64,000 bases of DNA from Methanosarcinales archaeon (GCA_021108405.1 JAIOQW010000336.1:1777-65776), one strand, 5' to 3'. Positions 16,761 through 61,013 are shown, counted from the first letter of the stretch. A program made the numbers and translations. Notes: generated by a model not told the origin, from the sequence alone.

Positions 16761-16857
16761 GCCGCCATAACTCAGTTGGTAGAGTGTCTGGCTGTTAAAT
16801 AACCTTAAGTGGTATGCAGCAACCAGAATGTCACAGGTCCGAGTCCTGTTGGCGGCG
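16761..16857 (+). tRNA. tRNA-Asn (GTT) with a 24-nt intron at position 37/38
   Basis: GCCGCCA/TGGCGGC acceptor, D-arm ACTC-AGTTGGTA-GAGT, anticodon stem TCTGG...CCAGA (16787-91 and 16823-27), anticodon GTT at 16794-96. The intron is ~16798-16821. T-arm ACAGG-TCCGAGT-CCTGT. 73 nt after splicing. Confidence 0.9.
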
Positions 16858-28957: not shown

Positions 28958-30890
28958 GGGTGCGGATGGCCATTATAATGGAATTTATATCAGTACAAAA
29001 AATCCACCAGCCCCATTTGGACAATACAACATTGTATCAAACAATACTGTATGCGGAAGCCAGGCAGAGGATATATTAATTGATGGTACTGCTGCTGGTA
29101 CAAACGATGTTAACGATAACACCTGCGACTTATCAATTGGTGGTGCCGGGAATGGTTGCCCCTGGAACTGCAACAACCTGGTATCAGTCTACTTTGATTT
29201 CGATGAAGATACATACTACAGTGATGAGCCTGAAAATTGCGAATGCGATATAGCTGGCAGTGGTAAGTGTGCATGCTGCAATCCGGGAATGTTCAATGGA
29301 AGCGATCCTGCTAAAGCATCATACGAAGCTTCATGCGATTGCCAGTGGACTGTCGGAAACGATCCCAATGACTGCAATGCAAGTATAACTCCATCACAAA
29401 CACAGACCTACAAGATCAGCGGTTACACAGACCCGGCAGCGGACACAGTTAATATTACGAACCTGAACAAGCCGGATGTTGTTGATGATAGAGCTGCTAA
29501 CATCGCAAATGATTTTTACGAAATCACACTTAACGTCTCGGATGAGGTTGAACCAGGTGATGTGCTCCGGATCACTGCATGTAAGGACGTTGGCAATTAC
29601 GAGAGTAACTGTAATGTAACAAATTATACGGTTGTGAATGCACCAGGAGAAGATACCAACGTCAACATCACATTAAACCACTACTGTCTGAACTACCATC
29701 CGGATTATCCGTTTAGCACATGGGAGCAAGATAACTGGAGTGGACCTGCTGTCATGCAGATGATGGTTAATCATTATAGATCTATGGAGCCGGCTCAATC
29801 GGATTTAAACGAAACAGGTATTGTACATAATCAGCCGTGCAACTCAGAACTTGAGTTCGTTGATCCGGACGGTATGAGGTGGACACTAAACGATATTCTG
29901 CATAATACCTCCTCCTATGGTGGTGGTAATTATGCGAATTACGATATCGGAAATTATGACAATCTTGATAGTGTACTCCACTACATCTGCTACTGGCAGC
30001 ATAAGGGACCTGGAGTGGCGCCGACTGATGGAGACTATTCCAACTGGATGGTAATTCGAGGAATCCATACCAGTGTAAATCCGTACCCGCAGTCTTCTGG
30101 TAGCTATGACATCTATGGATTCTGGATAAATGATCCAAATCCCACTGGCATTGGAGAGAACACCTATAAGACTGTGAATCAATGGACAAACGATTATTAC
30201 TCCACTCTCACAGGAGTAAATGTCGATGATAACTACCTGAACAGGTATGTTGCAGTATGTGAGCCACCGGTACAACCCGATTGCGAAATAAAGTTAGTAT
30301 CTTCGAAGCCAAGGTTTGATGATGCAATAACAACACCACTTGCTGAGATGACGCTCACAGCAAACAGCCCTGAACAAGTGAGTTATAAGAAGGTGCTCAG
30401 GAATGATAATTCACGTAAGATCGTAACGGCTGCGATCGATGGTGTTAATGAGGAACTTGTTCCATATGATGCTGCATTTGCAGAAGTTTTTGCAAAAACA
30501 GTTTCAGGTAAACCTAAGTTTGTCTCAGGCGACAACGAGAATTACTACATAATACCCTTTGATCTTTCTGTAAAGGAACGACTAAAGCCAATCAAAAAGT
30601 CAATCGCAGATATACGGAAGATCAAGCAGAAGACACTTGTCGTTGTGCTTATTGATACAGAGGATGGAAGCTTCAAGGAGGCTTCATGGGTCGAAGATCC
30701 TGTAGAGTACTTGCCTGTATCCGAAGCAAAGGCATTGCAGCTCATACACAATGAGGCAGATATATCAATAGAAAAACCGACGACTGAGCTTGTTCATAGG
30801 GATGCAAGCCCATACTATCCGGACTGGAAAGTTACGATCGGTGATAATGTCTTCTTCGTGAGCCAGGATGGAACGGTGAGCCAGGAATAA
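28950..30890 (+). pseudogene. 5'-truncated beta-helix surface protein (last rungs only) fused to a C-terminal C39-like domain region
   Basis: The frame of track ORF 29289..30890 is open upstream to ~28944 without a start. 28950-29170 encodes NTKGADGHYNGIYISTKNPPAPFGQYNIVSNNTVCGSQAEDILIDG...NDNTCD...GNGCPWNC, a close paralogue of 32036-32260 in ORF 31214..33163. It has no signal peptide and no N-terminal module. Confidence 0.6.
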
Positions 30891-31213: not shown

Positions 31214-33163
31214 ATGAATAGGAAAATATTATTTGAAATATTTCTTGTAATGATGATCATTATGGTAGGAAATGCAAGCGGCGAACTGCCTGCTTGCCCT
31301 GCACCCGGAGATACAGCAATTACAAGCAGTTGTCAACTCAATGATGACTATATTGTTACAGCAGGAAATGGTTATATTATCGGAGCAGATGATGTCGTCA
31401 TTGATGGTGCCGGTCATAAGATAAGTGGAGATGTTACAAGTGCAACATGCACTGCCGGCCAGACAGAGCCATGTGTAACACATTCCGGAATAGTCAACAA
31501 TGGGGGCTATAACAATGTGGTTATAAAGAATCTTGAAATAGAGAACTTCTGTACTGGTGTTGTGATGGGAATTTCCGTTGAGAATATGACAGTAGAGGAA
31601 TGCGAGATACATGATTGTGGTGCTTCTGATAGCGTAACACATGGCATACACATAGCAGGTGCATATAACTGCACTATAAAGGGAAATGAGATCTACAATC
31701 AAAAGGGAACAGCAGATGATACCTGTGGTGCAGGTGGAAACGGTATTTCATTACATGGAGTTACAGCAGATGAAAACTATGGAGGAGATTGGAACACCAT
31801 AATCTACAACAATCTTCATAACAATGCAAAATGTGGTCTCCATGCAAAATTTCAGTGTATGCATAACACAATCAGTCATAACCTGGTGACAGAAAATGCA
31901 AAATCAGGAATTATGCCAGAATGCAAGATGTCAAATTATTTCACTATCGAGTATAATACTATAACTGATAATGGTCCATATTATGGATTCTATACCCGTG
32001 GTCATGATAACGTTATTAGACATAATACCATTACCAATACCAAGGGTACGGATGGCCATTATAATGGAATTTATATCAGTACAAAAGGAGCACCAGGCCC
32101 ATTTGGAGAAAACAACATTGTATCAAACAATACTGTATGCGGAAGCCAGGAAGAGGATATAAAAATTGATGGTAATGCTGCTGATACAAACAATGTTAAC
32201 GATAACACCTGCGACTCGACCAGTGGTGGTACCGGGAATGGTTGTCCATATAACTGCAGCCAAACGCAATTATCACTATCAATTTCAGCCAGTCTAAGCG
32301 AAGTGAAAGTTGGTGAGGCTACGAATGTTACTTTTACAGTAACAAGCGATGACAACCCGGTTGAGGGTGCAAATGTAACTCTTAGCGGAAGTGCTGACGG
32401 TAGCGGCATTACAGAAGCCGATGGATCAGTGGTTATTTCAGTAAATGCAACCAGTGCAGGTACAATCACAGCCACAGCAATTAAGGAAAATTATACCAAC
32501 GGTACTACTACATTAACTGCCAAAGTGGATGAAATACACACACTATCAATTTCAGCCAGTCTAAGCGAAGTGAAAGTTGGTGAGGCTACGAATGTTACTT
32601 TTACAGTAACAAGCGATGACAACCCGGTTGAGGGTGCAAATGTAACTCTTAGCGGAAGTGCTGACGGTAGCGGCATTACAGAAGCCGATGGATCAGTGGT
32701 TATTTCAGTAAATGCAACCAGTGCAGGTACAATCACAGCCACAGCAAACAAGGATGGTTATACTGATGATACTACTACGTTGACTGCCAAACCAAAAGAA
32801 GATGGAGTCTCCTCATCTGTATCGCTGAGTGTGAATATCAAACCAACCATCTCATTGATAGTTACACCTGATAACATTGATTTTGGTGAACTTTATTCAG
32901 GTGAAACCAGTGATGTGCAATCCATGACTATTGAGAATAAAGGCGGATCCAGTTTCAATGTGACTACTCAGGTAAGTGATAATCCGGCAGAAGATACACT
33001 GTTCAAGAGCGGATTGCTGCTTGACTCAGCTATATGGAGTGATTATACTATATCCATAGATGCACAAGCATCAGTAATAGCTAATGGATCGCTTAATGTC
33101 CCTGGCGACTATATGGGAATTGGACAAAAACAAGGAGAAATAGTGTTCTGGGCGCAAGCCTAG
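31214..33163 (+). CDS. Secreted Cys-rich beta-helix protein (module 1) with two identical Ig-like repeats and a PapD/ASH-like C-terminal domain
   Basis: GGAGGA upstream and a signal peptide. Module motifs: HGIH, D.CGAGGNGISLH, NAKCGLHAKFQCMHN, GIMPECKMS, DGHYNGIYIS and NNTVCGSQEEDIKIDG. Two copies of LSISASLSEVKVGEATNVTFTVTSDDNPVEGANVTLSG... Confidence 0.75.
   Translation: MNRKILFEIFLVMMIIMVGNASGELPACPAPGDTAITSSCQLNDDYIVTAGNGYIIGADDVVIDGAGHKISGDVTSATCTAGQTEPCVTHSGIVNNGGYNNVVIKNLEIENFCTGVVMGISVENMTVEECEIHDCGASDSVTHGIHIAGAYNCTIKGNEIYNQKGTADDTCGAGGNGISLHGVTADENYGGDWNTIIYNNLHNNAKCGLHAKFQCMHNTISHNLVTENAKSGIMPECKMSNYFTIEYNTITDNGPYYGFYTRGHDNVIRHNTITNTKGTDGHYNGIYISTKGAPGPFGENNIVSNNTVCGSQEEDIKIDGNAADTNNVNDNTCDSTSGGTGNGCPYNCSQTQLSLSISASLSEVKVGEATNVTFTVTSDDNPVEGANVTLSGSADGSGITEADGSVVISVNATSAGTITATAIKENYTNGTTTLTAKVDEIHTLSISASLSEVKVGEATNVTFTVTSDDNPVEGANVTLSGSADGSGITEADGSVVISVNATSAGTITATANKDGYTDDTTTLTAKPKEDGVSSSVSLSVNIKPTISLIVTPDNIDFGELYSGETSDVQSMTIENKGGSSFNVTTQVSDNPAEDTLFKSGLLLDSAIWSDYTISIDAQASVIANGSLNVPGDYMGIGQKQGEIVFWAQA
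32274..32747 (+). repeat. Perfect 207-nt direct duplication at 267-nt period (Ig-like domain pair)
   Basis: 32274-32480 reads identical to 32541-32747 by eye. The 60-nt linkers differ. Confidence 0.9.
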
Positions 33164-33202
33164 AACTCCCTTTTTTTTTCGATAGAATGATGGTATGAAT
33201 TT

Positions 33203-33688
33203 ATGAAGAATATTATTATATTGTTAATAATAATTTTTTTTATATTAGAAACAGTTTCAGCTATCGGTATAGGCGTTACACCCGGGAATTTGAATTTTAG
33301 TACTCAAGTTGGCCTTTCCGATAGCAGATCGCTATATATAATCAATACAGGCACTGAGATTTCAAATTATAAAGTATACGTGGATGAAGATTATGCTAAC
33401 TGGTTTCATATTTCACCTGATAATTTCAGTCTGAATGCTAATGAGAATAAAGAAGTAATACTGAAATTCACACCGCCTATATCTTCAAAAGGAGACTTCG
33501 ATTTTACAGTATATTCAGTTTCTTCATCTCCATCTTCTGATTTCAGTGTAGGAAGCGGTATTAAAGTACCTGTTCAAGCCACAGTCTTTAATTCAGGAAT
33601 AATAGTAGCAGGATTAATACTGGTATTATTAATCATTGGAACTGGTGGTTATTGTATTTACAGAAAAAAAGGTAGAAATAATCAATAG
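33203..33688 (+). CDS. Small secreted PapD/ASH-like Ig-fold protein with C-terminal TM anchor
   Basis: Signal peptide. IGIGVTPGNLNFSTQVG...YIINTGTEISNYKVYVDEDYANWFHISPDNFSLNANENKEVILKFTPP. C-terminal IIVAGLILVLLIIGTGGYCIYRKKGRNNQ. Confidence 0.6.
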   Translation: MKNIIILLIIIFFILETVSAIGIGVTPGNLNFSTQVGLSDSRSLYIINTGTEISNYKVYVDEDYANWFHISPDNFSLNANENKEVILKFTPPISSKGDFDFTVYSVSSSPSSDFSVGSGIKVPVQATVFNSGIIVAGLILVLLIIGTGGYCIYRKKGRNNQ

Positions 33689-33700
33689 TCTTAAAAAAAG

Positions 33701-36700
33701 ATGAGAAAAAGTTTCATTCTTATGGCACTGGTGATAATATACTTTTCACTGATTGGAAGCTCCATAGCAGAGCATGCATGTGTTGTGGATGATGGCACCG
33801 CCTTCTTCTGTGGAGACACAGTAACAAAGAGTTGCACACTCAATGGAAGCATGACATGTCCGAATGCAGGATATGGATTGATCATAGGAGCAAAAGACGT
33901 TGTAATTAATGGTACAGGTTTTAAGATTATAGGAAATCGGGAAAATATTACTTGTAATAATAGTCAGACTGTGGCTGCAGAACATTCCGGAATTATCGAT
34001 ACTGATTATGGCAATGTCACAATAAAGAATCTGGAGATCGAAAATTTCTATACTGGAATCGCTTTAGGTAAATGTTCACTTGGTATTGATAACATAATAG
34101 TAACTGATTGCAAGATCCATGATTGCGGCAACTCTGATAGTATAACTCACGGTATCCATATGATAGGTGTGAATAACTGCACAATTAGCAAGAATGATAT
34201 CTATAACATTAATGGAACAGGGCCTGATTCTGGTTGTGGTGGGGGTGGAAATGGTATTTTTATGTATGGAGTAAGTAGAGACCATGGTAACTATAATAAT
34301 ATAATCCACAATAATTTTACTAATAATGTAAAAAGTGGCTTCTTTATGAAAATGATGTGCATGTACAATAATATTGGTTATAATAAAATGACTGGAAACG
34401 GTCAGGGAGGGGTTGTAATGATGTGCAAGGAATCAAATTATAATAATATTGAAGGTAATAATGCATCAGAAAATGATTGGTATGGTATCTTTACAGGTGG
34501 GAACAATAATACCATCAGATACAACACAATGACTAATAACGGGTACCATGGAATCGAATTGGGGAGAAGCGACGGGTCATACAATAACAAGTTGTATAAT
34601 AATGTAATTTGTGGAAATAACGATACAGATATAAAGATATATGGATCTGGCTCCGGAACTGCAGGTGGGAACAACACCTGTTGCACAACAATGCACTTTA
34701 ACGATGATGGAACTACTGGATGTAATTATGATTGTTCGCCTGCCCCGGATCTCACAATAATAGAAATGTCAGAAGATTTGATTGACTCAGAAGATAAGAT
34801 AAATAAGACATACAAGATCAACTATACAATCAGGAATAATGGTGATGAGGATGCAGAGGCAAGCAATACCTCGATCAAGATTGATGGAATAGAAGTTGCA
34901 GTCGATCCTGTTAAACCATTGAATGTGGGTGAGAAACACACCATCACAATCGGTCCTTTTAAAATCTCGGGAGGATACGACACAATCTGCCTCAATATCG
35001 ATAAAGATAATAATGTTTTTGAGAAGAGCAAGGAGTACAATAACTGTCTTGAGACTATACTCTTTCATCCTGAGATGCCTGACCTTGTGATATCAACAAA
35101 AACAGAGAATTGGATTACTGAAGGTTCAATATACAATATCACCTGCACGGTAGAGAATATCGGCACCACAAAAGCCAATGCGAGCAACACTTCTATCAGG
35201 ATAGATGAAATTGAGGTTGCAGTTGATCATGTTAACACATTAAACATTAATGAGAGCCATACCATTACATTCGGTCCTTTCATAATCACTGGAAATAACG
35301 ATACGGTTCTCATCTGTGCAGACTGTGATAATAATGTTGCAGAGAGCGATGAAACGAACAACTGTAAAGTGAATTCATTTGGAAACTCAAATGGAGATGA
35401 TAACAGGTCAACATGTTCGGATGGAACGCCTTATGGTGAATGCTCGGTAGATAAACCAAAGTACTGTGACAATGGAATTTTAATCGATGACTGTATTAGA
35501 TGCGGGTGTCAGGAAGGACAAAACTGTAACGAAGTATCAGGTTCTTGCTATGAACCAGGAGAAGGTGCCTGTATCGGTAAGACAAAGACCTTCTACTGCC
35601 AGGATACGGTAACAGAGTCCTGCACACTCAATGGAAATATGGTTTGTTCACCAGGACATGGCTTGATCATAAAAAAAGACGGGATCACGATTAACGGAAA
35701 TGGATACAAAATTACAGGGAGAAAATCCACTAAAGATTGTGCTAACTGTATGGAGACAGGTCCGACTGGAGGCCAAGAATCCGGGTTTTATTGTGGAATT
35801 TATAATAATGGCTATGACGATGTAACAATAGAGAATCTTGAGATCGAGGACTTCTGCACAGGAATTGGCCTTTTTGGAAATAGGCAGAGGATTATTGAGA
35901 ACAATAAAATAACCAATTGTAATATTCATAACAACGGATTTAAAACTACTTTCAATGGCCAGGATATGGTAACGCATGGTATCCATGCAAGCTTTGTACG
36001 GAATCTCGAGATAACCGGAAATGAGATTTACGAGAATGAGGGTACTGGTGATTTCTGTGGTGCAGGTGGAAATGGGATCTTCCTCTATGCAGGCGTGTCT
36101 GAAAATCATTGTGATATTAGCCACAATATATTATACAATAATGCGAAAGCAGGTTTCTGGACAAAGATGATGTTATCCAAGAGCACTATTACTCATAACG
36201 AGATATGGGGTAATGGAGATGGGTCAGGCATAGCTGATGATGTAAGAGGAGGGATCGTACTACGGTGTAAGAAATCGAGTGATAATCATATAGAATACAA
36301 TAACGTCCACGATCACGTTGCAGATGGATATGGTTACGGGATATATATTGGAGGTAGTAACAATACAATCGAGCACAATACCGTAACTTCAAATTCCGAA
36401 TCCGGGATCAATATGGGACGAAGCGATGGATCATTCGATAATAAGCTGTACAACAATCTCATTTGCGACAATGAAGTCGATATTGGTGTTACTACTGGTG
36501 TTACTGGAAATACCGGTGATGGAAACACCTGCAAAATAACAAATAATTATGACGATACCGGAACCACAAACTGCCTATATTCATGTCAGGGATCAAAACA
36601 AGAGAATGGTAGAAGGGATGTAGATTCAAAAAAGATGAAAGAAGAGGCTAAAGAAACACCGTTTGCCAAGGCTGGTGGAAATGGATCCATATCTTTAGCG

Positions 36701-36886
36701 AAGACAAAACCTGCACCTATAAAAGAAACTGAAAAGATTAACGGAGCTTCGTTATGGAAACCTGAGAAGGAGGATGGTATTTTTATAGATATCTCAATTC
36801 CATTTAAGATGGAGCATTTAGTTACATGCAGCTATTTCTTTATTACATCCATCATCGTGGTGATATTATTATGGCACCGTAAATGA
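33701..36886 (+). CDS. Cys-rich beta-helix protein with two modules (2 and 3) separated by two CARDB-like domains and a Cys-knot; C-terminal TM anchor
   Basis: Signal peptide. Both modules start with the C..F.C.DTVT.SCTLNG.M.C..G.GLII..(D/K)..ING.G.KI.G knot. CARDB-like PDL(T/V)I....Y.I.(Y/C)T(I/V).N.G...A..SNTSI(K/R)IDEIEVAVD appears twice (~34730-35380). The tail is SYFFITSIIVVILLWHRK. Confidence 0.75.
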   Translation: MRKSFILMALVIIYFSLIGSSIAEHACVVDDGTAFFCGDTVTKSCTLNGSMTCPNAGYGLIIGAKDVVINGTGFKIIGNRENITCNNSQTVAAEHSGIIDTDYGNVTIKNLEIENFYTGIALGKCSLGIDNIIVTDCKIHDCGNSDSITHGIHMIGVNNCTISKNDIYNINGTGPDSGCGGGGNGIFMYGVSRDHGNYNNIIHNNFTNNVKSGFFMKMMCMYNNIGYNKMTGNGQGGVVMMCKESNYNNIEGNNASENDWYGIFTGGNNNTIRYNTMTNNGYHGIELGRSDGSYNNKLYNNVICGNNDTDIKIYGSGSGTAGGNNTCCTTMHFNDDGTTGCNYDCSPAPDLTIIEMSEDLIDSEDKINKTYKINYTIRNNGDEDAEASNTSIKIDGIEVAVDPVKPLNVGEKHTITIGPFKISGGYDTICLNIDKDNNVFEKSKEYNNCLETILFHPEMPDLVISTKTENWITEGSIYNITCTVENIGTTKANASNTSIRIDEIEVAVDHVNTLNINESHTITFGPFIITGNNDTVLICADCDNNVAESDETNNCKVNSFGNSNGDDNRSTCSDGTPYGECSVDKPKYCDNGILIDDCIRCGCQEGQNCNEVSGSCYEPGEGACIGKTKTFYCQDTVTESCTLNGNMVCSPGHGLIIKKDGITINGNGYKITGRKSTKDCANCMETGPTGGQESGFYCGIYNNGYDDVTIENLEIEDFCTGIGLFGNRQRIIENNKITNCNIHNNGFKTTFNGQDMVTHGIHASFVRNLEITGNEIYENEGTGDFCGAGGNGIFLYAGVSENHCDISHNILYNNAKAGFWTKMMLSKSTITHNEIWGNGDGSGIADDVRGGIVLRCKKSSDNHIEYNNVHDHVADGYGYGIYIGGSNNTIEHNTVTSNSESGINMGRSDGSFDNKLYNNLICDNEVDIGVTTGVTGNTGDGNTCKITNNYDDTGTTNCLYSCQGSKQENGRRDVDSKKMKEEAKETPFAKAGGNGSISLAKTKPAPIKETEKINGASLWKPEKEDGIFIDISIPFKMEHLVTCSYFFITSIIVVILLWHRK

Positions 36887-36938
36887 TGTTAAAGATTGAT
36901 ATAAAGCGGGTTTATTATAAAATAGAAAGAGGTAAAAT

Positions 36939-38423
36939 ATGAAAAAAACAGTAAAAGGTCTCATTAGTATTGGAATTATAATAGTGTTTCTGGCAGGGTC
37001 TGTGAGTGCTAAGAACTGTGGTGATGGAATTGCTCCTTGTGATTGTGGTGATACAGTTGTATCAAACTGGACATTCACCGGTGATATTACCTGTCCTGCC
37101 GGACATGGCTTGATCATTGGATCAGATGGGATCACGATCGATGGGAAAGGATATACAATAACCGGATCCGCTCAATCGTGTGGGTATATTACTGAAACAG
37201 ATCCCTCACAGGGATATTGTGGAATTTATAATCCCGGATATGATAATATTGTGATAATAAATTTAGAAGTTGAGATGTTCTGCAACGGGATCGCACTTCA
37301 CGGCACAGGATCAAATCCTGTTGTTAGCAACTCAATAGATAATTGTAACATCCATCATAACGGAAATTCTACAGATGGTAAGAGCCATGGAATCCATGCA
37401 TGCTTTGTGAGTGAATGCATAATAAGCAATAACGATCTTCATCATAACACCGGGATAGGCGATGCCTGCGGTGATGGAGGAAATGGGATTTTTCTATATG
37501 CAGGACATGAGGAATATAAAGGCAACATTATAACCAAAAATGTTTTTCATGAGAACAGAAAAGGCGGCTTTTTTGCAAAGATGATGCTCCAGCATGCAGA
37601 GATAACACAAAACCATGCCTATGCAAACGGTCAGGGCGGGATTATATTACGATGCAAGAAATCCAGCAACAATCTCATCGAAAATAACAATGCATCGCAA
37701 AACCACGGGGATGGGATCTTTATAGGTGGTAAGAATAACACGATCAGTAAGAACATCGTAGAGAATAACATGGCTGGTTTCAAGATCAGTTCGACTGATG
37801 TCGTCGGTGATGGCGATGGGATCGATATGGGACGAAGCGATGGATCATTCGGTAATAAGTTGCATGATAATACAGTCTGTGGAAATGAGGATATGGATAT
37901 AGATACTTTCGGACCCGATTCAGGAACAATTGGGAATGAGAACACGTGTGAGACTACGGATTATTATAATGATGAGGATGTTACAGGATGCAGTTATTCA
38001 TGTATCGATCCGGAAGAGCTTGCCAGAATGCTAACCTCACAGGGCTGGATGATTTATGGCACATCCGGGGATGAGTGGTGTATCAAACAGAAAGAAGTGT
38101 TTGGAGATGCTTTTAGGAATCTGAATTATATCAACTGTGATGAAAATGAAGAGGCATGTATAAATGCCAATATTAAAAACATTCCTTGCTGGATTTCACC
38201 TAATAAAACACATTACCCTGGCTATTATGATCTGAACAGACTTTCAGAGCTTACGAAAGAATATCATAGAGCAGTTTCACCTTCAGAAAATCTACATGGG
38301 TCAAATCAGACGTCTTCCGGATCGAATTCTCTGGGTGGTTCTGTGGGTTGTTTTGAATTGATACTTACATTAATTGTGATATCTATCTTTCTGGTGGGGC
38401 AAAAAGGAAAAAACAATAGGTGA
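36939..38423 (+). CDS. Cys-rich beta-helix protein (module 4) fused to a thioredoxin-like domain and a C-terminal TM anchor
   Basis: Signal peptide. Knot: CGDGIAPCDCGDTVVSNWTFTGDITCPAGHGLIIGSDGITIDGKGYTITG. The C-terminal ~38000-38260 encodes GWMIYGTSGDEWCIKQKEVFGDAFRNLNYINCDENEEACINANIKNIPCWISPN, a paralogue of ORF 42353..42799. Confidence 0.75.
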   Translation: MKKTVKGLISIGIIIVFLAGSVSAKNCGDGIAPCDCGDTVVSNWTFTGDITCPAGHGLIIGSDGITIDGKGYTITGSAQSCGYITETDPSQGYCGIYNPGYDNIVIINLEVEMFCNGIALHGTGSNPVVSNSIDNCNIHHNGNSTDGKSHGIHACFVSECIISNNDLHHNTGIGDACGDGGNGIFLYAGHEEYKGNIITKNVFHENRKGGFFAKMMLQHAEITQNHAYANGQGGIILRCKKSSNNLIENNNASQNHGDGIFIGGKNNTISKNIVENNMAGFKISSTDVVGDGDGIDMGRSDGSFGNKLHDNTVCGNEDMDIDTFGPDSGTIGNENTCETTDYYNDEDVTGCSYSCIDPEELARMLTSQGWMIYGTSGDEWCIKQKEVFGDAFRNLNYINCDENEEACINANIKNIPCWISPNKTHYPGYYDLNRLSELTKEYHRAVSPSENLHGSNQTSSGSNSLGGSVGCFELILTLIVISIFLVGQKGKNNR

Positions 38424-38427
38424 TGTA

Positions 38428-40311
38428 TTGGTATTTATTGTAAAAAGATTCTATATTGTAGTTGTATCTTTAATGATTTACTCAATCTTTATGGTTGGAA
38501 ATGGAAGTGCGGGATGTATCGGTGAGATAACAGGCACAGACTATGGATGTGGTGATACTGTAATAGAAAGCTGCACATTCAATGAGAATCTAAGGTGTCC
38601 AAATGGTGGATTGATCATCGGAGCAGACGGGATCATTATTAATGGAAACGGATACACACTCGTTGGTACAGGTAGTGGACAGGAAGGAATTTATAATGAA
38701 AATTGTAATGATGTAACGATAAAAAATATAAATATCCGTGAATTCTGTTTTGGGATTTATTTTACAGGTGTAAATAACTGTAGTATAATAAATAACAGCA
38801 TAAGCTATGGTACTGGAAGCGGGATCTGGCTTCATAGTTCATTATACAACGAGATAATTGGCAATCGTATATATCACGGCGATGAGGGTCATGGGATCTT
38901 GTTATCATCTTTTTCACATAGAAATACTCTGGAATCTAACAACATAACAACCTTAAACGGAATGGGGATCTGTATAGAGGAATCGGATGGAACCAGGCTT
39001 TTTTGTAATTATATCTGTAATAATAAACAGGGTGATATCGTTGTTAACGGATCTGAAAACAGAGGTGTTAATAATACCTGCGGGATAACAGATAATTATA
39101 ATGATACACAAGGAACACTCTGTACCTATTCCTGCCCTTCATCCATGGATTTTACGGATGAAAGACCGATAAGTGGGGAAAAAAGTGATAGTAGTTGTGG
39201 ATGTGTATCTGATAAAGACCCATCAAAGATATTTGGCTGTGGGGATATAGTGAACGAAAGCTGCACATTTAATTGCAATCTTGAATGTGAAAAGGGACAC
39301 GGCCTGATCATAGGTGCTAACAATATAACAGTGGATGGGAATGGGTATACACTGGATGGTCTTCTTGTTGGTACGTGTGTTTTGGATGAGCGGTCGGGGA
39401 TATATAATAAGGGATATGATGACTTCACGGTAAAAGATCTTGAGATCAAGAACTTTTGCAATGGAATATACTTCGAAGGAGAGATAAAAGATACCATCTA
39501 CCAAAACACGATAGATAGCTGTAATATCCACCATAACGGCAATACAGGCAGTGGGGATACACAGACACATGGAATTAAGATGCGTTATGTTTATAACAGC
39601 ACGATAAGTAGTAATGAGGTACACCATAATCTTGGAAGTGGAGATGGGTGTGAGAATGGTGGTAATGGTATATTTTTCTATGCCGGTGATTACAACCTCA
39701 TTACGAATAACACTGTTTCTGAAAACACAAAAGCAGGCATCTTCACAAAGATGAAGCCGAAGTACAACAACATCTCCTCTAATATTGTGAAAGAGAATGG
39801 TCAGGGAGGAATTGTACTAAGATGCAAGCTATCGAGCTTGTTCATTATCGAGAACAATATTGCATCCGATAATAAGGGTGTGGGGATTTATGTAGGCGGT
39901 GAAGGTAACACACTTAAGAATAACACTGCGATGAATAATAAGAACGGTTCGGATTATGGATGGAGTGGCACGGGAATCTGGATGGATAGGGAAGCATACA
40001 ACACTACACTTATCTCAAACAATGTTACAGGGAATGATTATATGGATATGAAAGTAAAGGAAGGGCTCATCGGGATAGAAGGCTCAAATAATACCTATGA
40101 AAAATCTTCAAAATATGAGGATAATTCCAGGCAGAGCGAGATTATCGAAGGAAAGAAGGTGGAGTGTAAATCAAATAATTGGAGTAACGACATTACACCA
40201 GAAAGATCCGTATTGCCATCTGTAAATATTACGCCATTCATGGCCACGTTTCTTATCCTTCTTTTATTAATGTTTGTTTTTTTTGGTTATCTGCAAGGGA
40301 AAAAAAATTAA
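38428..40311 (+). CDS. Cys-rich beta-helix protein with two modules (5, degenerate; 6, complete) and a C-terminal TM anchor
   Basis: TTG start 4 nt after the previous stop. Knots: GCIGEITGTDYGCGDTVIESCTFNENLRCPNGGLIIGADGIIINGNGYTLVG and FGCGDIVNESCTFNCNLECEKGHGLIIGANNITVDGNGYTLDG. The tail is FMATFLILLLLMFVFFGYLQGKKN. Confidence 0.75.
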   Translation: MVFIVKRFYIVVVSLMIYSIFMVGNGSAGCIGEITGTDYGCGDTVIESCTFNENLRCPNGGLIIGADGIIINGNGYTLVGTGSGQEGIYNENCNDVTIKNINIREFCFGIYFTGVNNCSIINNSISYGTGSGIWLHSSLYNEIIGNRIYHGDEGHGILLSSFSHRNTLESNNITTLNGMGICIEESDGTRLFCNYICNNKQGDIVVNGSENRGVNNTCGITDNYNDTQGTLCTYSCPSSMDFTDERPISGEKSDSSCGCVSDKDPSKIFGCGDIVNESCTFNCNLECEKGHGLIIGANNITVDGNGYTLDGLLVGTCVLDERSGIYNKGYDDFTVKDLEIKNFCNGIYFEGEIKDTIYQNTIDSCNIHHNGNTGSGDTQTHGIKMRYVYNSTISSNEVHHNLGSGDGCENGGNGIFFYAGDYNLITNNTVSENTKAGIFTKMKPKYNNISSNIVKENGQGGIVLRCKLSSLFIIENNIASDNKGVGIYVGGEGNTLKNNTAMNNKNGSDYGWSGTGIWMDREAYNTTLISNNVTGNDYMDMKVKEGLIGIEGSNNTYEKSSKYEDNSRQSEIIEGKKVECKSNNWSNDITPERSVLPSVNITPFMATFLILLLLMFVFFGYLQGKKN

Positions 40312-41432
40312 TGAACATTACAAGAGTGATATTACTGATTTTTATATTATTTATCGCATCATCACAAGCCAGTGCAAATGAGGATGCAGAGGTGCTTGAA
40401 TCCTATGCGGAAAAGCTTGATGACGTTGGAAAATACGAAGATGCAGGTAGATTGTACGATAAAATTGCACTCCATTATGAGAACGAGAGCGATTGGGAGA
40501 ATGCATCAGGATATTATTTGCTCGCCGCAGAAAATTTTAAGAATGTGGAAATGTACAAAACTGTAGGGGCATCATATATAAATGCCGGAAATTGTTACTA
40601 TACAATACATGATTGTGATAACGCATCTAAATACTATTTACTGGGTGCAGAAAGTTATAAAAAATCTGATCCGGGGTATGATGATGAATGGATAGAAAAA
40701 AAGAATAATCAGTGCAAAGAAGGGGTGCTGATGCGCGGGCTTGCAATGTTCGGAATTCTATTCGGCATGATAAAATTCGCAAGTAAAGCCGCATTTGGGC
40801 TTGGTTTTGCAAATGTCGGAAGAAGAGAGATCTTAGCGGTTGCAGATTTTTACTTCCTTATAGCGTTTTTGATGAGCTTTTTTATCAGTATGATGCGTGA
40901 GACACTGTACGAATTCATTAATATACTTTTTAGTTTTGGCATGGCATTCGGTGTGTTTCAATTTATACTGGCATTTCTGCTGCTTACACTTGGATTTTAC
41001 ACGTTAAAAAAGTGGAAGGAGAAAAAAAACGTCTCAAAGAAGACCTTCCTCTTGATGATACTTCCATGTCCTGTGTCGCTGGTAACGATCTTTATGACGT
41101 GTGCGTTTTTTATAATCACAGGAATGGAAGCTATAAAGGTTGGAATTCTCGTAGGAGGTATATTTTCTCTTTCAATTATCGGAATAACCATGCTCATACA
41201 AAGATCAAAACTCGATAAGACCCCTTCAAACCTTGGAGCTGTTATGATATTCTTTGGAATGCTCTATCTGCTCTCTATCATATTTATACCAGCTTACCTC
41301 GCGGTATATGATATGAATATCGTAGTCGAAGGCTTTTCCGGAAAAAATATGATGTCCGGATATCTTCTTGCAGCATTTTTGATTTTTATAGGGTTTATTT
41401 ACGGACAAATAATTAACAAAAGGATGACATAA
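40311..41432 (+). CDS. Membrane protein: signal peptide, extracytoplasmic TPR/SNAP-like repeat domain, then ~7 TM segments (DUF2162-like predicted transporter?)
   Basis: Start shares a base with the upstream stop (TAATG). Three A..YY.LAAE.(F/Y)K-type helical repeats. The polytopic region contains LMILPCPVSLVTIFMTCAFFI. The DUF2162 assignment rests on memory of its co-occurrence with MotA/ExbB plus DUF2149 genes in methanogens. Confidence 0.5.
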   Translation: MNITRVILLIFILFIASSQASANEDAEVLESYAEKLDDVGKYEDAGRLYDKIALHYENESDWENASGYYLLAAENFKNVEMYKTVGASYINAGNCYYTIHDCDNASKYYLLGAESYKKSDPGYDDEWIEKKNNQCKEGVLMRGLAMFGILFGMIKFASKAAFGLGFANVGRREILAVADFYFLIAFLMSFFISMMRETLYEFINILFSFGMAFGVFQFILAFLLLTLGFYTLKKWKEKKNVSKKTFLLMILPCPVSLVTIFMTCAFFIITGMEAIKVGILVGGIFSLSIIGITMLIQRSKLDKTPSNLGAVMIFFGMLYLLSIIFIPAYLAVYDMNIVVEGFSGKNMMSGYLLAAFLIFIGFIYGQIINKRMT

Positions 41433-41434
41433 AC

Positions 41435-41995
41435 ATGTATTCTGAACTGATGAAAATATTTTTAGCTATAAGTAATGCACTATTATATCCCGTGTTGATT
41501 CTGCTTATTGTACTCATTATACTCTGCTTTATAGATCTCGGAGTACTTTTATCTGAATATCCGAAAAGAAGCAAAAATTTTGATGATAAGTTTAAAGGAG
41601 GTCATTTAAGCAGGTTTTACAATGTACTGAATGAAGTTATATTAAAATATCGTGATGATGAGGACCTCTGTACGATTGAGATAGAAAAACTGCTCCGTGA
41701 TTGCATGGCTGAAATCTCAGTGAAACTGGAGCGAATACGCCTGATGATTAGAATTGGTCCAATGCTTGGTCTTATGGGAACGCTCATACCGCTCGGTCCT
41801 GCATTATTGGGATTAAGCGCGGGAAATATCGAACAGCTTGCAAATAATCTTGTGATTGCATTTACATCAACTGTAATTGGACTTTTTATTAGTGCAGTCT
41901 CGCTTGTTGTGACCACTGTGAGGCGGCGATGGTATAAAGAGGATATGAAAGATATGGAGTATATAGCCGAGAAAATGATAAGGGGATCAGAATGA
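41435..41995 (+). CDS. MotA/TolQ/ExbB-family proton-channel protein
   Basis: Three TM segments. IGPMLGLMGTLIPLGPALLGL....LANNLVIAFTSTVIGLFISAVSLVV parallels the ExbB/TolQ signature (ap.lGLlGTv.G ... AL.tTa.GL..aip). Confidence 0.7.
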   Translation: MYSELMKIFLAISNALLYPVLILLIVLIILCFIDLGVLLSEYPKRSKNFDDKFKGGHLSRFYNVLNEVILKYRDDEDLCTIEIEKLLRDCMAEISVKLERIRLMIRIGPMLGLMGTLIPLGPALLGLSAGNIEQLANNLVIAFTSTVIGLFISAVSLVVTTVRRRWYKEDMKDMEYIAEKMIRGSE

Positions 41996-42333
41996 ATAAA
42001 AAAATCAGATTTATGGGAAAGAAAAGAGAGATTGAAGAGGAAGACGACGATCCGATGGCAGGCATTGCGAATCTATTTGATGTAGCGATCATTTTTGCCG
42101 TAGCTCTAATGGTTGCACTCGTGACGCACAACAGCTTGCCAGAGCTTATCTCTGATGAGAACTTCACGATCGTGAAGAATCCCGGAACTGAGGATATGGA
42201 GATTATTATAAAGGAGGGCGAAAAGATAGAGATTCAGAAGATCACAAACGAAACGATGAAAGGTACCGGAGAGAAACTGGGTACGACATACCTCCTGCCA
42301 AACGGGGAGGTTGTCTATGTGGTGGAAGATTAA
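41992..42333 (+). CDS. ExbD/TolR-like single-TM protein (DUF2149-type)
   Basis: ATGA overlap with the ExbB-like gene. An acidic N-terminus is followed by one TM helix with a buried Asp (GIANLFDVAIIFAVALMVALV), analogous to ExbD FIDVMLVLL. A small beta-rich C-terminal domain follows. Confidence 0.6.
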   Translation: MNKKIRFMGKKREIEEEDDDPMAGIANLFDVAIIFAVALMVALVTHNSLPELISDENFTIVKNPGTEDMEIIIKEGEKIEIQKITNETMKGTGEKLGTTYLLPNGEVVYVVED

Positions 42334-42352
42334 GACGATGCAAACATACCAA

Positions 42353-42799
42353 TTATCTTCTTCTTATCAACAAAACGATAAGAATAGCTATTAGACTATA
42401 CATAAATCCAAAACCGGCTGTATTATTATTTGCTGATGGATCAAAATGTTCTGCCCGATAGTCTTTCATTATCTCATTAAGCTCTGTCAAATTATAGTAC
42501 CCCGGATAGAATGTGCCGTTTGGTGAAACCCAGGATGGAATACTTTCGATGCCAGCATCGATGCATACCTGCATATTTTCGTTGCAGTTAATATATGTCA
42601 GATTTGTAAAAGAATCACCAAATTCTTCTTTTTGTTTGATACACCACGGGCATTGATCTGTGCCGTATAATACCCATCCATTATTATTTAATTCACAAGC
42701 CAGAACTTCAGCTGTGGTTTCTTCTGCATATACCATTCCTGTTAACAATACTAAAAGTACTGTGAAACTAATTATCAGTATAATATAAATTTTTTCCAT
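42353..42799 (-). CDS. Extracytoplasmic thioredoxin-like protein (VKOR-associated Trx type), CPWC active site, C-terminal TM anchor
   Basis: Signal peptide. GWVLYGTDQCPWCIKQKEEFGDSFTNLTYINCNENMQVCIDAGIESIPSWVSPNG.FYPGY resembles the Trx-like domain fused to bacterial VKOR homologues (YGA.WCPHC..QK..FG....YVEC.....C...GI..YPTW). The tail is GFGFMYSLIAILIVLLIRRR. Confidence 0.6.
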   Translation of the reverse strand: MEKIYIILIISFTVLLVLLTGMVYAEETTAEVLACELNNNGWVLYGTDQCPWCIKQKEEFGDSFTNLTYINCNENMQVCIDAGIESIPSWVSPNGTFYPGYYNLTELNEIMKDYRAEHFDPSANNNTAGFGFMYSLIAILIVLLIRRR

Positions 42800-51087: not shown

Positions 51088-54000
51088 TTACTTACCCTTA
51101 TGCCACATTACCAGATACGCTACCAATATCAGCACAGTGATGGTTAATCTACAATCAAACCCGGGTACTTCTTCGTTCTCATCCGGTGGCTCGGGTGCTC
51201 GTACAATTGTCATAATACTGTTAGTATTATCCATTTCATTTTCAAAGTCTAAAGAAAAAACATTTACCGTGACATTATATATACCCGCATCCGCATCTGT
51301 TATATTTAAAGTGACATTCCAAGAAGCGCCAATACCAAGATCAAGTATAAATGACCTGTTTAATTCTGCTACATCTGCACTATCCGAATTGTTGACTGTA
51401 AGTTGAAAGCTGTCTATGAAATTTCCTGTATTCTTTAACGTTAGTACATATGTTGCATTTATATTCGGTTTGGTTATTTGTTCAGCCGGCGAAGAGATAG
51501 TTGCATTATAAACTCCTTTTATAACCGAGTTGTTCTGGTATGAGATAGCATAATTCGATAAATTATCATACATTTCCACACATAGATTATACCTGCCATA
51601 CGCCGCGGTTGTATTGATATGAAAACTCTCGTTTACACAAAGCCCGGTTCCACCCAACACACATGTATTGGTTATTTTATTTATAACTGCAGTGCTGTTC
51701 TTTATTGTGATAGTGTAGTTCTTCGGAGTTAATTCCGTATAGGTGAAGTTGACCCAAAACATTTTTCCTCCCATTCCATAAAAAGGAGATAATTTAGTTG
51801 GTACATTTATTATAACATCCGGAGGTGTGACATTTGTTAGCATAAGAGGATGGTAATCACCACCGTTTAGGATTTCTCCGGAAGAATTATAGGGGGTAAG
51901 GGTATCTCCCAGTCCATCTTTATCAGTATCAATGCCAGTATAGTCTGACCAGTAGTTGCCAGCAAGATGCAAACCTCCAATGATGTTTAATCCTGCTGTT
52001 TTTGTGATGTTCCATATGTTATTATAGCTTCCTGAAGTATTAGCGTTGTGTATGTTGTTGAAGTGGTTGTTGTAGATGAAGTTGCAGTACGATTCCTTTA
52101 GATAAATACCGTAATGATTAGAGTTTATTGTACAATTTTCTATTATTGAATAATTAGTATGAACAAGCAACACACCTTCGTAATTCATTGTTAGTGTCAA
52201 ATCTTTAATAGTAGTATTCGTTGCGTTTACGACTGCTACATAGCCGGCATCATCCGGAATTACTTTATCTTGTTCATCTATTAAGTAATAGATCGGCTTT
52301 TCATCAACAATGTTACTTGTATCAATATTTTGTATGTATCCGGAAAGATTGCTACTATAAATACCAAAGTTGTATGAATTTTGGGACATAGTATTGTCTG
52401 AAAGCGTATTTTGGCTTGATTCGTATAGATAGATACCATAACCGAAGTCACTTATGTCATCTATTCTAATATTAGAATTTGCTGTGTTGTTCGTAAGCGT
52501 ATTATTGCCTGAATTATTCAGGTAGATGCCGTAGCCGAAGTTATGGTTATTATTACAATCTCCTGTAGAATGATTGTTGTTATTGTGGCTATAACCACAG
52601 GTACCGCATTTTCCACAATTTAAATTTGCAGTACAGTTTGTAAGAGTATTGTTGCTTGATGAATACAGGTAGATACCATAACCGTAGCCATAACCTCCAT
52701 CACCACCACCATCACCACCATCACCACCTGAGCCATTGTTTGAGCTTATATTGTTGTTTACCAGCGTATTATTACTCGAAGAATATAGATAGATGCCATA
52801 ACCATAGCCATCGCCACCACCTACCCCATAATAAGAATCATAATCACTACTATCACCACCTGAGCCATTATTTGAGCTTATATTGTTGTTTACCAGCGTA
52901 TTATTACTCGAAGAATATAGATATATGCCATAACCATAGCCATCGCCACCATCACCACCTAGCCCATAATAAGAATCATAATCACTACCATCACCACCTG
53001 AGCCATTGTTTGAGCTTATATTGTTGTTTACCAGCGTATTATTACTCGAAGAATATAGATAGATGCCATAACCATAGCCATCGCCACCACCTACCCCATA
53101 ATAAGAATCATAATCACTACTATCACCACCTGAGCCATTATTTGAGCTTATATTGTTGTTTACCAGCATATTATTACTCGAAGAATGTAGATAGATACCA
53201 TAACCATAGCCATGGCCGCCCCTACCAATATTACAGTTATACTCGTTTTTGCATGATCCGCTGGTGCCTCCTTTTCCTCCATTTAAGTGTGCAATATTGT
53301 TCGAAAGCGTATTATTGTTTGAAAAAAATAAATAAATGCCATGCCCGAACCCATCATTGCCATCACCACTACAGGAAACAGACCCACCAGAAAAATCTGG
53401 ACCGTTGGTACCACCTTTTCCACTATTCAAATCTGCTGTATTGTTCGTAAGTGAATTATTACTCGAATAATGTAGGTATACACCATAACCGTAGCCTTCA
53501 CCCCCATTACTACCACAACTACCATGTGAAGGACCTCCGCTGCCGTTACCTCCGCGGCCTTTGTTTGATCTCATATTGTTATTTTCAAGTATATTATCAT
53601 TTGAATAATTCAGGTAGATGCCATAACCGTAGCCATAGCCACCGCCATAGGCACTGTATGAGCTGCAAACGCCATTTTCACCATTTCCGCTATTCAAATT
53701 TGCTGTGTTGTTCGCAAGAGTATTATTGCTTGAAGAATCCAGGAGGATACCATAGCCGTAGCCATTGCCGCTACTACTGCCCATCCCAAGATCACCTCTT
53801 CCGCCTCTTCCATTATTTAAGCTTGCAGTGTTGTTCGTAAGTGTGTTGTTACTTGAAGAATACAGGTAGATACCGTAACCGTAGCCATCACCGGCCCAGG
53901 TGCCACGATACACATCACAATCACCATCTCCACCTCTTCCATTATTCAAGATTGCAGTATTGTTCGCAAGCGTATTGTTGCTCGAAGAATATAGGTAAAT

Positions 54001-54576
54001 ACCGCAACTGTAGCCATTATCACCCTCAAAGGGATTACTACTCACAAGGCCTTTTCCGTGGTTCAAGCTTGCATTATTATCCATAAGTAGATTATTGTTT
54101 GAATGGAACAGATAAATGCCGTAGTTGTTATACAAAGCGGAAATATTAGAAATATTGCAGTTATCTACACAATTGAGATAAATACCATTTCCTGATTTCG
54201 CCCCTGTTATTGTAAACCCGGAGATATTCACATAGTCCTTTGTCACCTTTAAGACATGTTCACTTGAATTAGCCGCTGTTACATTCACCACATCCGCACC
54301 CTCTCCCCGCAGCGTGAGATATTTGCTCACTTTCACATTTTCACTATAATTACCGGCATGTATAAGAATAATATCTCCATTCGATGCGGCATCCACAGCT
54401 TCCTGTATTTTAGAATATGTCTGTCCGGAACCAACGTGTATTTCTGCTGCACTTGCTGTGTGACAAATGAGCGCCATTGATAAGAGTAGCAGTAAAATTT
54501 TTTTATTACGATAAGAAGAAAGCAGCATGGTATCTGCTATCCTCATATATACTGTGACCTGATCTTTAATTGTCAT
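51088..54576 (-). CDS. Giant surface beta-helix protein with Gly/Tyr/Asp-rich inserted loops and a PGF-CTERM-like tail
   Basis: The signal peptide probably starts at an internal Met (..MLLSSYRNKKILLLLLSMALICHTASA). The N-terminus AEIHVGSGQTYSKIQEAVDAASNGDIILIHAGNYSENVKV is paralogous to 7839..11660. About 13 rungs of type GYGYGIYLYSSSNNTL.NN are separated by G/D/S/Y loops. GGLHLAGNYWSDYTGIDTDKDGLGD is present. The C-terminus is VPGFDCRLTITVLILVAYLVMWHKGK. Confidence 0.75.
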   Translation of the reverse strand: MTIKDQVTVYMRIADTMLLSSYRNKKILLLLLSMALICHTASAAEIHVGSGQTYSKIQEAVDAASNGDIILIHAGNYSENVKVSKYLTLRGEGADVVNVTAANSSEHVLKVTKDYVNISGFTITGAKSGNGIYLNCVDNCNISNISALYNNYGIYLFHSNNNLLMDNNASLNHGKGLVSSNPFEGDNGYSCGIYLYSSSNNTLANNTAILNNGRGGDGDCDVYRGTWAGDGYGYGIYLYSSSNNTLTNNTASLNNGRGGRGDLGMGSSSGNGYGYGILLDSSSNNTLANNTANLNSGNGENGVCSSYSAYGGGYGYGYGIYLNYSNDNILENNNMRSNKGRGGNGSGGPSHGSCGSNGGEGYGYGVYLHYSSNNSLTNNTADLNSGKGGTNGPDFSGGSVSCSGDGNDGFGHGIYLFFSNNNTLSNNIAHLNGGKGGTSGSCKNEYNCNIGRGGHGYGYGIYLHSSSNNMLVNNNISSNNGSGGDSSDYDSYYGVGGGDGYGYGIYLYSSSNNTLVNNNISSNNGSGGDGSDYDSYYGLGGDGGDGYGYGIYLYSSSNNTLVNNNISSNNGSGGDSSDYDSYYGVGGGDGYGYGIYLYSSSNNTLVNNNISSNNGSGGDGGDGGGDGGYGYGYGIYLYSSSNNTLTNCTANLNCGKCGTCGYSHNNNNHSTGDCNNNHNFGYGIYLNNSGNNTLTNNTANSNIRIDDISDFGYGIYLYESSQNTLSDNTMSQNSYNFGIYSSNLSGYIQNIDTSNIVDEKPIYYLIDEQDKVIPDDAGYVAVVNATNTTIKDLTLTMNYEGVLLVHTNYSIIENCTINSNHYGIYLKESYCNFIYNNHFNNIHNANTSGSYNNIWNITKTAGLNIIGGLHLAGNYWSDYTGIDTDKDGLGDTLTPYNSSGEILNGGDYHPLMLTNVTPPDVIINVPTKLSPFYGMGGKMFWVNFTYTELTPKNYTITIKNSTAVINKITNTCVLGGTGLCVNESFHINTTAAYGRYNLCVEMYDNLSNYAISYQNNSVIKGVYNATISSPAEQITKPNINATYVLTLKNTGNFIDSFQLTVNNSDSADVAELNRSFILDLGIGASWNVTLNITDADAGIYNVTVNVFSLDFENEMDNTNSIMTIVRAPEPPDENEEVPGFDCRLTITVLILVAYLVMWHKGK
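52717..53142 (-). repeat. Tandem 132/138-nt coding repeats; two ~156-nt blocks identical at 270-nt offset
   Basis: 52717-52872 reads identical to 52987-53142 by eye. Units begin TGAGCTTATATTGTTGTTTACCAGCGTATTATTACTCGAAGAATATAGATAGATGCC at 52741, 52873, 53011 and 53143. Confidence 0.85.
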
Positions 54577-60728: not shown

Positions 60729-61013
60729 TTAGTTACCCGTTGATTTTATTATGTTTCCGTTTTCATCTATTGTGACTTTACTCACAATGGGAATTTTTGC
60801 CCCATCTTCAGCAGTTACAGTTTTCTTGAAAGTAAATACCTTTGCATTTGTAGGTGTTTTTTTAGGATGTTCTAGTCCCAATTTTCTTTCCACTTTTTGG
60901 GGAATACTGCGCTCCTCCTCTTGAATACTAGGTTCCACATCTTTCAATTCTGGAGATTCCTTTTTGATGTGTTCTGTTGCTATTTTTTTCAGTTGTTCTG
61001 ATGTTAAAGTCAT
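60729..61013 (-). CDS. Small hypothetical protein translationally coupled to the C25-like protease gene
   Basis: 94 aa and Lys/Glu-rich. ATGA overlap at 61010-61013 with the upstream ORF. Confidence 0.5.
   Translation of the reverse strand: MTLTSEQLKKIATEHIKKESPELKDVEPSIQEEERSIPQKVERKLGLEHPKKTPTNAKVFTFKKTVTAEDGAKIPIVSKVTIDENGNIIKSTGN

Follow-up and report, generated by a model that had tools for sequence, protein, structure and literature searches.

We analysed a 64,000-nucleotide stretch of DNA from a Methanosarcinales archaeon (GCA_021108405.1 JAIOQW010000336.1:1777-65776; hereafter, the window), and within it a locus at 31214-42799 whose nine genes encode, in order, the proteins labelled A through I (Table 1). 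Four of these proteins (A, C, D, and E) contain Cys-rich beta-helix modules; F, G, and H form a membrane trio of the ExbB/ExbD-like motor type; and I is thioredoxin-like. The system is best described as ExbB/ExbD-type envelope energy transduction in which a beta-helix effector replaces the CobN/HmuS chelatase. We propose that E, F, G, and H constitute the core of an archaeal, TonB-less envelope module of the HmuTUV type, with a tail-anchored beta-helix effector and a likely role in metal acquisition; for this reading, taken whole, we see about an even chance. Among the observations behind it, the order E-F-G-H is conserved in related archaea, and E ends in a tail that resembles those of the chelatases found beside the same trio elsewhere.

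The motor-like trio and its probable beta-helix partner

Protein F contains a signal peptide, an extracytoplasmic TPR domain, and a polytopic DUF2162 domain (Pfam: DUF2162, 8.9e-38, plus TPR/SNAP). DUF2162 is marked by an invariant intramembrane PCP, an invariant Cys 11 residues on, and a PAY motif. Protein G matches MotA_ExbB (PF01618) at 45.3 bits versus a cut-off of 22.9 (E-value 9e-12), across profile positions 21-126 of 127, and gives weak direct matches to TolQ and MotA structures. Protein H matches a single Pfam family, DUF2149 (PF09919, 1.3e-28). It is a single-pass protein with its amino terminus inside and a small outside domain; the aspartate D30 of its transmembrane (TM) helix, within the motif NLFDVA, is invariant among 30 archaeal homologs. 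ExbD and TolR carry an Asp in their single TM helix.

A closer likeness comes from the iron-induced hmuYRSTUV operon of the Bacteroidota, in which the DUF2149 protein is named HmuV and the adjoining MotA/ExbB protein HmuU (PMC10434189, PMC11681262). There, HmuS is a heme de-chelatase, anchored in the membrane by terminal helices, that supplies Fe2+ to FeoB (PMC12583661, PMC12094164), and the literature calls the roles of HmuT, HmuU, and HmuV unclear (PMC12094164, PMC12583661). The DUF2149 genes in Porphyromonas and Prevotella hmu loci encode proteins 47-58% identical to H. DUF2162 aligns end to end with 37 bacterial HmuT open reading frames (ORFs), over 202 columns (hhalign probability 96%, E-value 2e-9), a score of the kind that TM proteins inflate; Bacteroidota HmuT itself gets no Pfam DUF2162 match. 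Because H is so similar to HmuV, DUF2162 aligns with HmuT, and G is ExbB-like, the F-G-H trio appears, on sequence grounds, to be the archaeal counterpart of HmuT-U-V and no orphan, F being the probable equivalent of HmuT. An arCOG survey merely noted DUF2149 (arCOG03208) as "linked to TolQ" in methanogens (PMC9425974).

The trio and its neighbours were surveyed by searching a DUF2149 alignment against one genome per species. This yielded 80 loci, whose ORFs were searched with the window proteins and with a hidden Markov model (HMM) of the beta-helix module. Homologs of G and H adjoin in essentially all 80. In class 1 loci the G-H pair adjoins a giant protein of the CobN/Mg-chelatase family (PF02514, E-value 0). 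Members include most of the bacteria, with the Porphyromonas and Prevotella hmu operons among them; the archaeal members (Methanosarcina, Methanococcoides, Methanolobus, Methanoculleus, and some anaerobic methanotrophic archaea [ANME] of the ANME-1 group) have DUF2162 preceding the pair. Class 2 comprises the closest relatives of the window genes: loci from two Methanosarcinales metagenome-assembled genomes (MAGs), from ANME-1 GoMg2, and from two Altiarchaeota. These are without CobN and carry a full-length E ortholog directly upstream of DUF2162-ExbB-DUF2149, with 49-55% identity over about 620 amino acids (aa) and the same short-plus-full arrangement of modules. Away from class 2, a chelatase of the CobN/HmuS type is almost always the partner of the trio. 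The two classes also separate by score: G and H match their class 2 relatives at 229-267 bits versus 122-154 bits for class 1.

Contig look-ups added eight more independent class 2 loci, all in the same order. In every one of the resulting 13 related loci, which span Methanosarcinales, ANME-1, Syntrophoarchaeum, and Altiarchaeota, the E ortholog immediately precedes DUF2162-ExbB-DUF2149; overall, full-length identity between E and its orthologs is 49-74%. A metagenome scan seeded with E orthologs returned 58 further loci. DUF2162 comes directly after the E ortholog in every one of the 20 informative contigs (those whose sequence continues past this gene), and ExbB and DUF2149 come next where the contig reaches. 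E/F junctions mostly overlap or are separated by at most 22 nt. Throughout the surveyed loci the partner of the trio is either CobN-like or E, never both. A first-pass annotation of the window had made its linkage of motor and beta-helix genes depend on synteny in related genomes, and such synteny is present in all of these loci and contigs. The link is specific to one family, and no by-product of abundant beta-helix genes, because the module HMM gives no match to the three other NosD proteins of the window. The family itself is rare (741 clusters of 1.84 billion at E-value <=1e-30) and occurs mainly in Altiarchaeota and in archaea that oxidise alkanes or methane anaerobically.

The strongest argument for E as the motor partner is its C-terminal tail. 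In E orthologs these approximately 60 residues comprise the motif V-E/R-G-K-K/R-M/V, a linker, the motif (T/A)P(L/M)(M/I)AT, a TM helix, and a final GY with basic residues. An HMM of this tail, searched against 6,743 ORFs, found beyond the E orthologs just one kind of sequence: the C-termini of CobN-like partners (E-values 1e-4 to 6e-3). The reverse model, built from eight archaeal CobN tails, retrieved from the same ORFs the tails of E proteins (1e-6 to 1e-3) and of bacterial HmuS, and nothing else. The tails of E and of CobN/HmuS appear to be homologous. Since otherwise unrelated ectodomains carry this tail beside the same trio, E would be the functional partner of the motor, in the place of the chelatase; a single type of motor would seem to accept either E or a CobN/HmuS chelatase as its effector. 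We found no description of this shared tail in the literature that was searched.

The survey also revealed several variations on these arrangements. A second triad, found in survey loci L003, L004, L084, L087, L089, L094, L116, and L139-L142, lacks DUF2162 and encodes, in order, a giant beta-helix protein, a divergent ExbB' of 241-270 aa, and DUF2149'. These giants (1,800-2,150 aa, with CARDB domains and several modules) have conserved C-terminal tails of their own, for example VVAPVFL...LFYLGYRKEKKMHRR. A second ExbB/DUF2149 pair is absent from the window, though many related loci carry one. Between DUF2162 and ExbB, L002 (6476-6928) and L004 (8965-9432), both from Methanosarcinales MAGs, encode an ICMT/PEMT-like membrane methyltransferase of about 150 aa that also is absent from the window. 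A natural DUF2162-ExbB fusion occurs in a Methanobacteriota MAG (L006, 4297-5388; 363 aa), with a CobN-like gene adjoining. Finally, one metagenome contig (L095, LGVF01134705.1) is 97% identical to the window across C-D-E-F; its C gene is split into ORFs of 783 and 288 aa, through either a strain variant or an assembly frameshift.

Cys-rich modules and thioredoxin-like domains

Self-BLAST and the module HMM both recover the six paralogous modules annotated at first pass. These reside in four ORFs, not in five: one module each in A and D, and two each in C and E, the pair in E being one short and one full. The six copies are 34-47% identical in pairwise comparisons; a module is about 330 aa long and contains 11-17 Cys residues. 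Cys makes up 4.0-4.5% of proteins C, D, and E, versus 0.7-1.8% of the other window proteins, a range that includes three other NosD-type beta-helix proteins. Pfam upholds the earlier domain calls, with Beta_helix (PF13229)/NosD (PF05048) above cut-off in A, C, D, and E, and a Foldseek search with the beta-helix model matched beta-helix structures (best E-value 4e-6). Surface placement had been read from CARDB and Ig domains and from C-terminal TM anchors; the domains are present, and the anchors are found in B through E and not in A.

Protein A is secreted and consists of one module (aa 32-352; module HMM score 440; Pfam Beta_helix, 6.4e-14, plus NosD) and three Ig-like domains, without a C-terminal anchor. 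Its gene contains a 267-bp tandem unit (32274-32791; 1.9 copies, 95% identity) that copies one Ig-like domain almost exactly, so two of the Ig-like repeats are near-identical; the repeat indicates a recent internal duplication. Protein B has no beta-helix and gives no match to the module HMM. It is a small Ig-like protein (ASH/PapD-like fold) with a signal peptide and a C-terminal TM anchor, and all of its Ig-type Pfam matches are sub-threshold.

Protein C (1061 aa) contains two full modules (aa 21-348 and 620-965; module HMM domain scores 476 and 460), two CARDB domains, and a C-terminal anchor (Pfam: CARDB, 4.5e-29; Beta_helix, 1.2e-18). Between its modules lies a Cys-rich "KPKYC" mini-domain (aa ~575-620; window 35420-35560) whose pattern, PYGECS..KPKYC..G.L.D.C..CGC..G..C, is common to C, to Altiarchaeota proteins (P0163/P0164), and to other E orthologs. 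Protein D fuses one module (aa 21-358) to a thioredoxin-like domain (aa 359-451), again with a C-terminal anchor. In protein E a short module (aa 27-239) precedes a full one (aa 256-570), after which come a disordered linker and the anchored tail; the AlphaFold2 model of E (predicted local distance difference test score, pLDDT, 82.8) displays two beta-helix domains, the linker of approximately 35 residues, and a terminal helix. We propose accessory or receptor-like roles at the surface for the paralogous proteins A, C, and D.

Protein I is membrane-anchored and extracytoplasmic, with a CPWC motif and a weak Pfam match to Thioredoxin_2. It aligns with the thioredoxin-like domain of the Synechococcus VKOR fusion (3kp9/3kp8; phmmer E-value 5.5e-11), and the alignment takes in both the CPxC motif and a second Cys pair. 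The difference lies in the partner: I is free-standing, or fused to a beta-helix module in D, rather than VKOR-fused. No VKOR domain was found among the scanned window ORFs of at least 150 aa. Protein I shares 55% identity with the C-terminal domain of D, which has DEWC where I has CPWC. At least nine other loci encode, directly upstream of the E ortholog, either a free-standing I homolog (L002, L004, L089, L100, and L105) or a D-type fusion (L095, L096, L097, and L099). I is a probable disulfide-forming oxidoreductase of the VKOR-partner type, and the simplest reading of I and the D domain together is that they serve oxidative folding or isomerisation of the disulfides in exported Cys-rich proteins. 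Against the PGF-CTERM profile, I scores 17.2 bits versus a cut-off of 18.8, and the L002 homolog scores 16.8 bits.

Proposed metal acquisition and competing explanations

These features suggest how the module might work. By analogy with their families, G and H would form a proton-driven, stator-type complex with which F is associated. E would be exported and stay tethered through its tail, the presumed homolog of the tail in CobN/HmuS-type (de)chelatases, and the motor would act on or gate this anchored effector so that proton-gradient work is used outside the cell. Its most likely purpose would be to strip or hand over iron, another metal, or a metal-tetrapyrrole for import, with F, through its intramembrane PCP...C motif, as a possible conduit. 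I and the C-terminal domain of D would form or shuffle disulfides in the Cys-rich proteins.

Several known systems offer parallels. The Bacteroidota hmuYRSTUV operon encodes an HmuV about 50% identical to H, an HmuU of the same type as G, and an HmuT that aligns with F and occupies the same gene position. Its partner protein, HmuS, bears the same kind of C-terminal tail as E, and Feo is the downstream iron importer in both cases (here, in related loci L084 and L116; PMC12583661). The window differs in lacking the HmuY hemophore, the TonB-dependent HmuR, and the CobN/HmuS chelatase; in its host, an archaeon without a Gram-negative outer membrane; in its Cys-rich beta-helix effector; and in the extra TPR ectodomain of F. 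Archaeal DUF2162-ExbB-DUF2149-CobN clusters have the same three membrane genes in the same order (PMC9425974), together with a secreted partner anchored by a homologous tail. That partner is a CobN/Mg-chelatase-family protein of 1300-2000 aa encoded downstream of the trio, whereas here the beta-helix proteins are encoded upstream.

The 5:2 motors ExbB-ExbD-TonB and TolQ-TolR-TolA likewise combine a MotA/ExbB-family channel subunit, a single-pass partner with an essential-looking TM aspartate, and an energised, membrane-tethered protein that reaches outward. Here there is no TonB, TolA, or outer-membrane receptor; H is no member of the ExbD family in Pfam; it is the C-terminus that anchors the tethered protein, which has its own functional domain; and a third, polytopic subunit (DUF2162) is present. 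The NosDFY(L) system for copper/sulfur delivery to N2O reductase also couples an outward-facing, right-handed beta-helix of the NosD family to a membrane energy converter for metal movement. There, the ATP-binding cassette (ABC) transporter NosFY supplies the energy; it is absent here, and the modules here are Cys-rich and tail-anchored.

The case for metal comes from gene context in related loci. DtxR-type repressor genes directly flank the unit in L093 and in both Altiarchaeota loci (L001 and L005). Downstream of H in L084 and L116 come a ChuW/HutW-like radical SAM gene, three copies of FeoA, and FeoB, in that order. This radical SAM gene, which also follows H in L110, has as its closest NCBIfam model ChuW/HutW, a family of anaerobic heme degradation (8.6e-65). 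FeoB lies upstream in L092. In L094, genes for a CobW/HypB-like GTPase, an ABC ATPase, and an SBP_bac_6 protein stand immediately upstream of E. The position of Feo after H parallels the release of heme Fe2+ by HmuS for FeoB (PMC12583661). Metal capture was one of the candidate roles put forward at first pass, and these DtxR, Feo, ChuW-like, and CobW neighbours lend it support; another of them, matrix remodelling, is the less likely candidate. The gene context suggests iron or metal acquisition, a role that we rate at roughly even probability.

Several findings weigh against this interpretation, in whole or in part. The ChuW-like match, at 219 bits, is under the equivalog cut-off of 400. The window's own locus contains no metal-related genes, and a search of the window for the DtxR/IdeR operator (canonical consensus, up to 3 mismatches) gave 0 matches, a search that is uninformative for archaeal operators. 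Proteins A through E have no CxxCH heme motif, and E has no known metal- or heme-binding motif. Foldseek matched tailspikes, alginate lyases/epimerases, pectate lyase, and NosD at similar scores and 8-15% identity, so the fold by itself does not single out a function. Canonical NosD itself was rejected: TIGR04247 gives at best 48.6 bits (E) and 20.6 bits (D) versus a cut-off of 300. On the motor side, a fold search with the F model returned matches to the TPR part, and the low-confidence TM part (DUF2162) had no significant match. At E-value <=10, a profile of 30 H homologs matched none of the ExbD or TolR chains of the PDB; because no solved relative was found, the label "ExbD-like" for H reflects architecture and pairing only. 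Finally, the similarity between the tails of E and CobN/HmuS is modest (E-values 1e-6 to 5e-3) and lies partly in the TM segment.

Further searches narrow the comparisons. CobN-Mg_chel, HmuY, and TonB-dependent transporter (TBDT) domains are absent from the window; TonB and TBDT families have no match among the nine locus proteins or the flanking proteins; and Pfam detects no ABC genes in the locus. The idea that archaeal class 1 loci are flanked by iron or corrinoid ABC transporters was dropped: Pfam identified unrelated housekeeping genes there instead.

The fold matches to tailspikes and polysaccharide-active enzymes lead to a different view, in which the beta-helix proteins would bind or cleave glycans as adhesins or matrix enzymes (CASH/pectate-lyase-like) and the motor would power their movement, exposure, or turnover in aggregate formation, adhesion, or a gliding-like process. 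Some family members contain a dockerin, cohesin genes flank L081, and nosD-like proteins of ANME communities have been interpreted as adhesion factors (PMC13452462); moreover, the conserved Lys, Arg, His, and Asn residues on successive rungs would suit a groove for acidic sugars. This view leaves unexplained why the same tail and motor serve CobN/HmuS chelatases, and why DtxR, Feo, ChuW-like, and CobW genes are neighbours; we consider it unlikely. The tail can also be seen as a signal, and the trio as a machine that sorts or processes the proteins bearing it, with DUF2162 and its invariant Cys as a sortase-like enzyme and the motor supplying energy for release or attachment. The architecture of the tail (motif, TM helix, basic cluster) resembles PGF-CTERM/PEP-CTERM signals, the polytopic DUF2162 has its invariant PCP...C motif, and the partners of each motor type share a conserved tail of their own, as do the giants upstream of ExbB'/DUF2149'. 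Nevertheless, known exosortases and archaeosortases operate without ExbB-like motors, no catalytic His or Arg partners stand out in DUF2162, and HmuS reportedly stays anchored in the membrane through its terminal helices (PMC12583661), all of which makes a sorting function distinctly improbable.

Membership of G in the TolQ/ExbB family, together with the abundance of beta-helix surface proteins with CARDB and Ig domains, would fit a Tol-like system for envelope maintenance: the beta-helix proteins would be structural parts of the wall, and the task of the motor would be to stabilise or remodel the envelope or sheath. This is very unlikely: TolA-, TolB-, and Pal-like genes are missing, the partners elsewhere are enzymes (CobN/HmuS), and the distribution of the family is narrow, unlike that of a housekeeping function. 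Beta-helix surface genes are numerous enough, with three more NosD-type giants elsewhere in the window, that chance might have placed some beside the trio. Those giants are unmatched by the module HMM, and the E-F-G-H order is kept, with overlapping junctions, across four archaeal lineages; chance adjacency is scarcely credible, being effectively refuted by the synteny survey.

Our proposal of a TonB-less, HmuTUV-type module invites a broader one, which we offer tentatively as a less-than-even prospect: that DUF2162-ExbB-DUF2149 (HmuTUV) is a general proton-motor platform of Bacteria and Archaea that recognises a C-terminal tail and powers interchangeable effectors, among them a metal-extracting beta-helix protein in sulfidic sediments. 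If so, iron or another metal (or a metal-tetrapyrrole) would be extracted beyond the membrane at no cost in ATP, and archaea would have a functional equivalent of TonB-dependent uptake. In this locus an ExbB/ExbD-like motor is linked to one defined surface-protein family. The locus bears on how proton-gradient work might be done outside the cell in archaea that have neither outer membrane nor TonB, and on the iron and metal supply of ANME and alkane-oxidising archaea in sulfidic sediments. Moreover, the shared tail provides a testable idea for the role of HmuT, HmuU, and HmuV with HmuS in gut and oral Bacteroidota, and E, F, G, and H, with the tail, make up a target set for structures of a possible new class of 5:2-type motor.

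Layout of the locus and the rest of the window

The gene coordinates annotated at first pass are correct (Table 1), as are the gaps of 12 nt (B/C), 4 nt (D/E), and 2 nt (F/G), the overlapping start and stop signals at E/F (TAATG, 40309-40313) and G/H (ATGA, 41992-41995), and the 19 nt that separate H from the convergent gene I. The number of co-oriented ORFs in 31214-42333 had been given as nine. There are eight; the ninth ORF is the convergent I. A run of nine T residues 3' of A and a TATA-like box 5' of D allow for internal transcription units. A G/C hairpin followed by eight T residues is probably the 5' boundary of the locus, and because it separates the upstream gene (29289-30890) from A, that gene is kept out of the system.

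Table 1. Genes and other mapped features of the locus (positions counted from the first nucleotide of the window)
Feature	Start	End	Strand	Remarks
G/C hairpin, then T8	30910	30939	+	Read from sequence; between upstream gene 29289-30890 and A
A	31214	33163	+	
B	33203	33688	+	
C	33701	36886	+	
D	36939	38423	+	
E	38428	40311	+	
C-terminal tail of E	40123	40308	+	aa ~566-627; conserved in E orthologs; juxtamembrane G-K-K-V/M motif, later TP(F/L)MAT
F	40311	41432	+	
G	41435	41995	+	
H	41992	42333	+	
I	42353	42799	-	

H and F are 100% identical to proteins encoded on a 66-kb contig from a Methanosarcinales MAG. The remainder of the window consists of ordinary archaeal housekeeping genes. The upstream gene product (29289-30890; 533 aa) has no sequence relative in Pfam, NCBIfam, or the PDB, and an ORF at 61010-62962 on the minus strand (650 aa) has no Pfam match. 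The three giant NosD/Beta_helix surface proteins (66-2879, 7839-11660, and 51088-54576, the last on the minus strand) have ordinary Cys content; one of them contains a GEVED domain, and one a dockerin. A 97-nt tRNA (16761-16857) beside a tRNA-Met scores 58 bits with Rfam, while ARAGORN reports none; possibly it is an intron-containing archaeal tRNA. The ORF at 58615-59415 clearly encodes RNase III domains (Ribonucleas_3_3, 1.5e-19); this family is seldom met in archaea.

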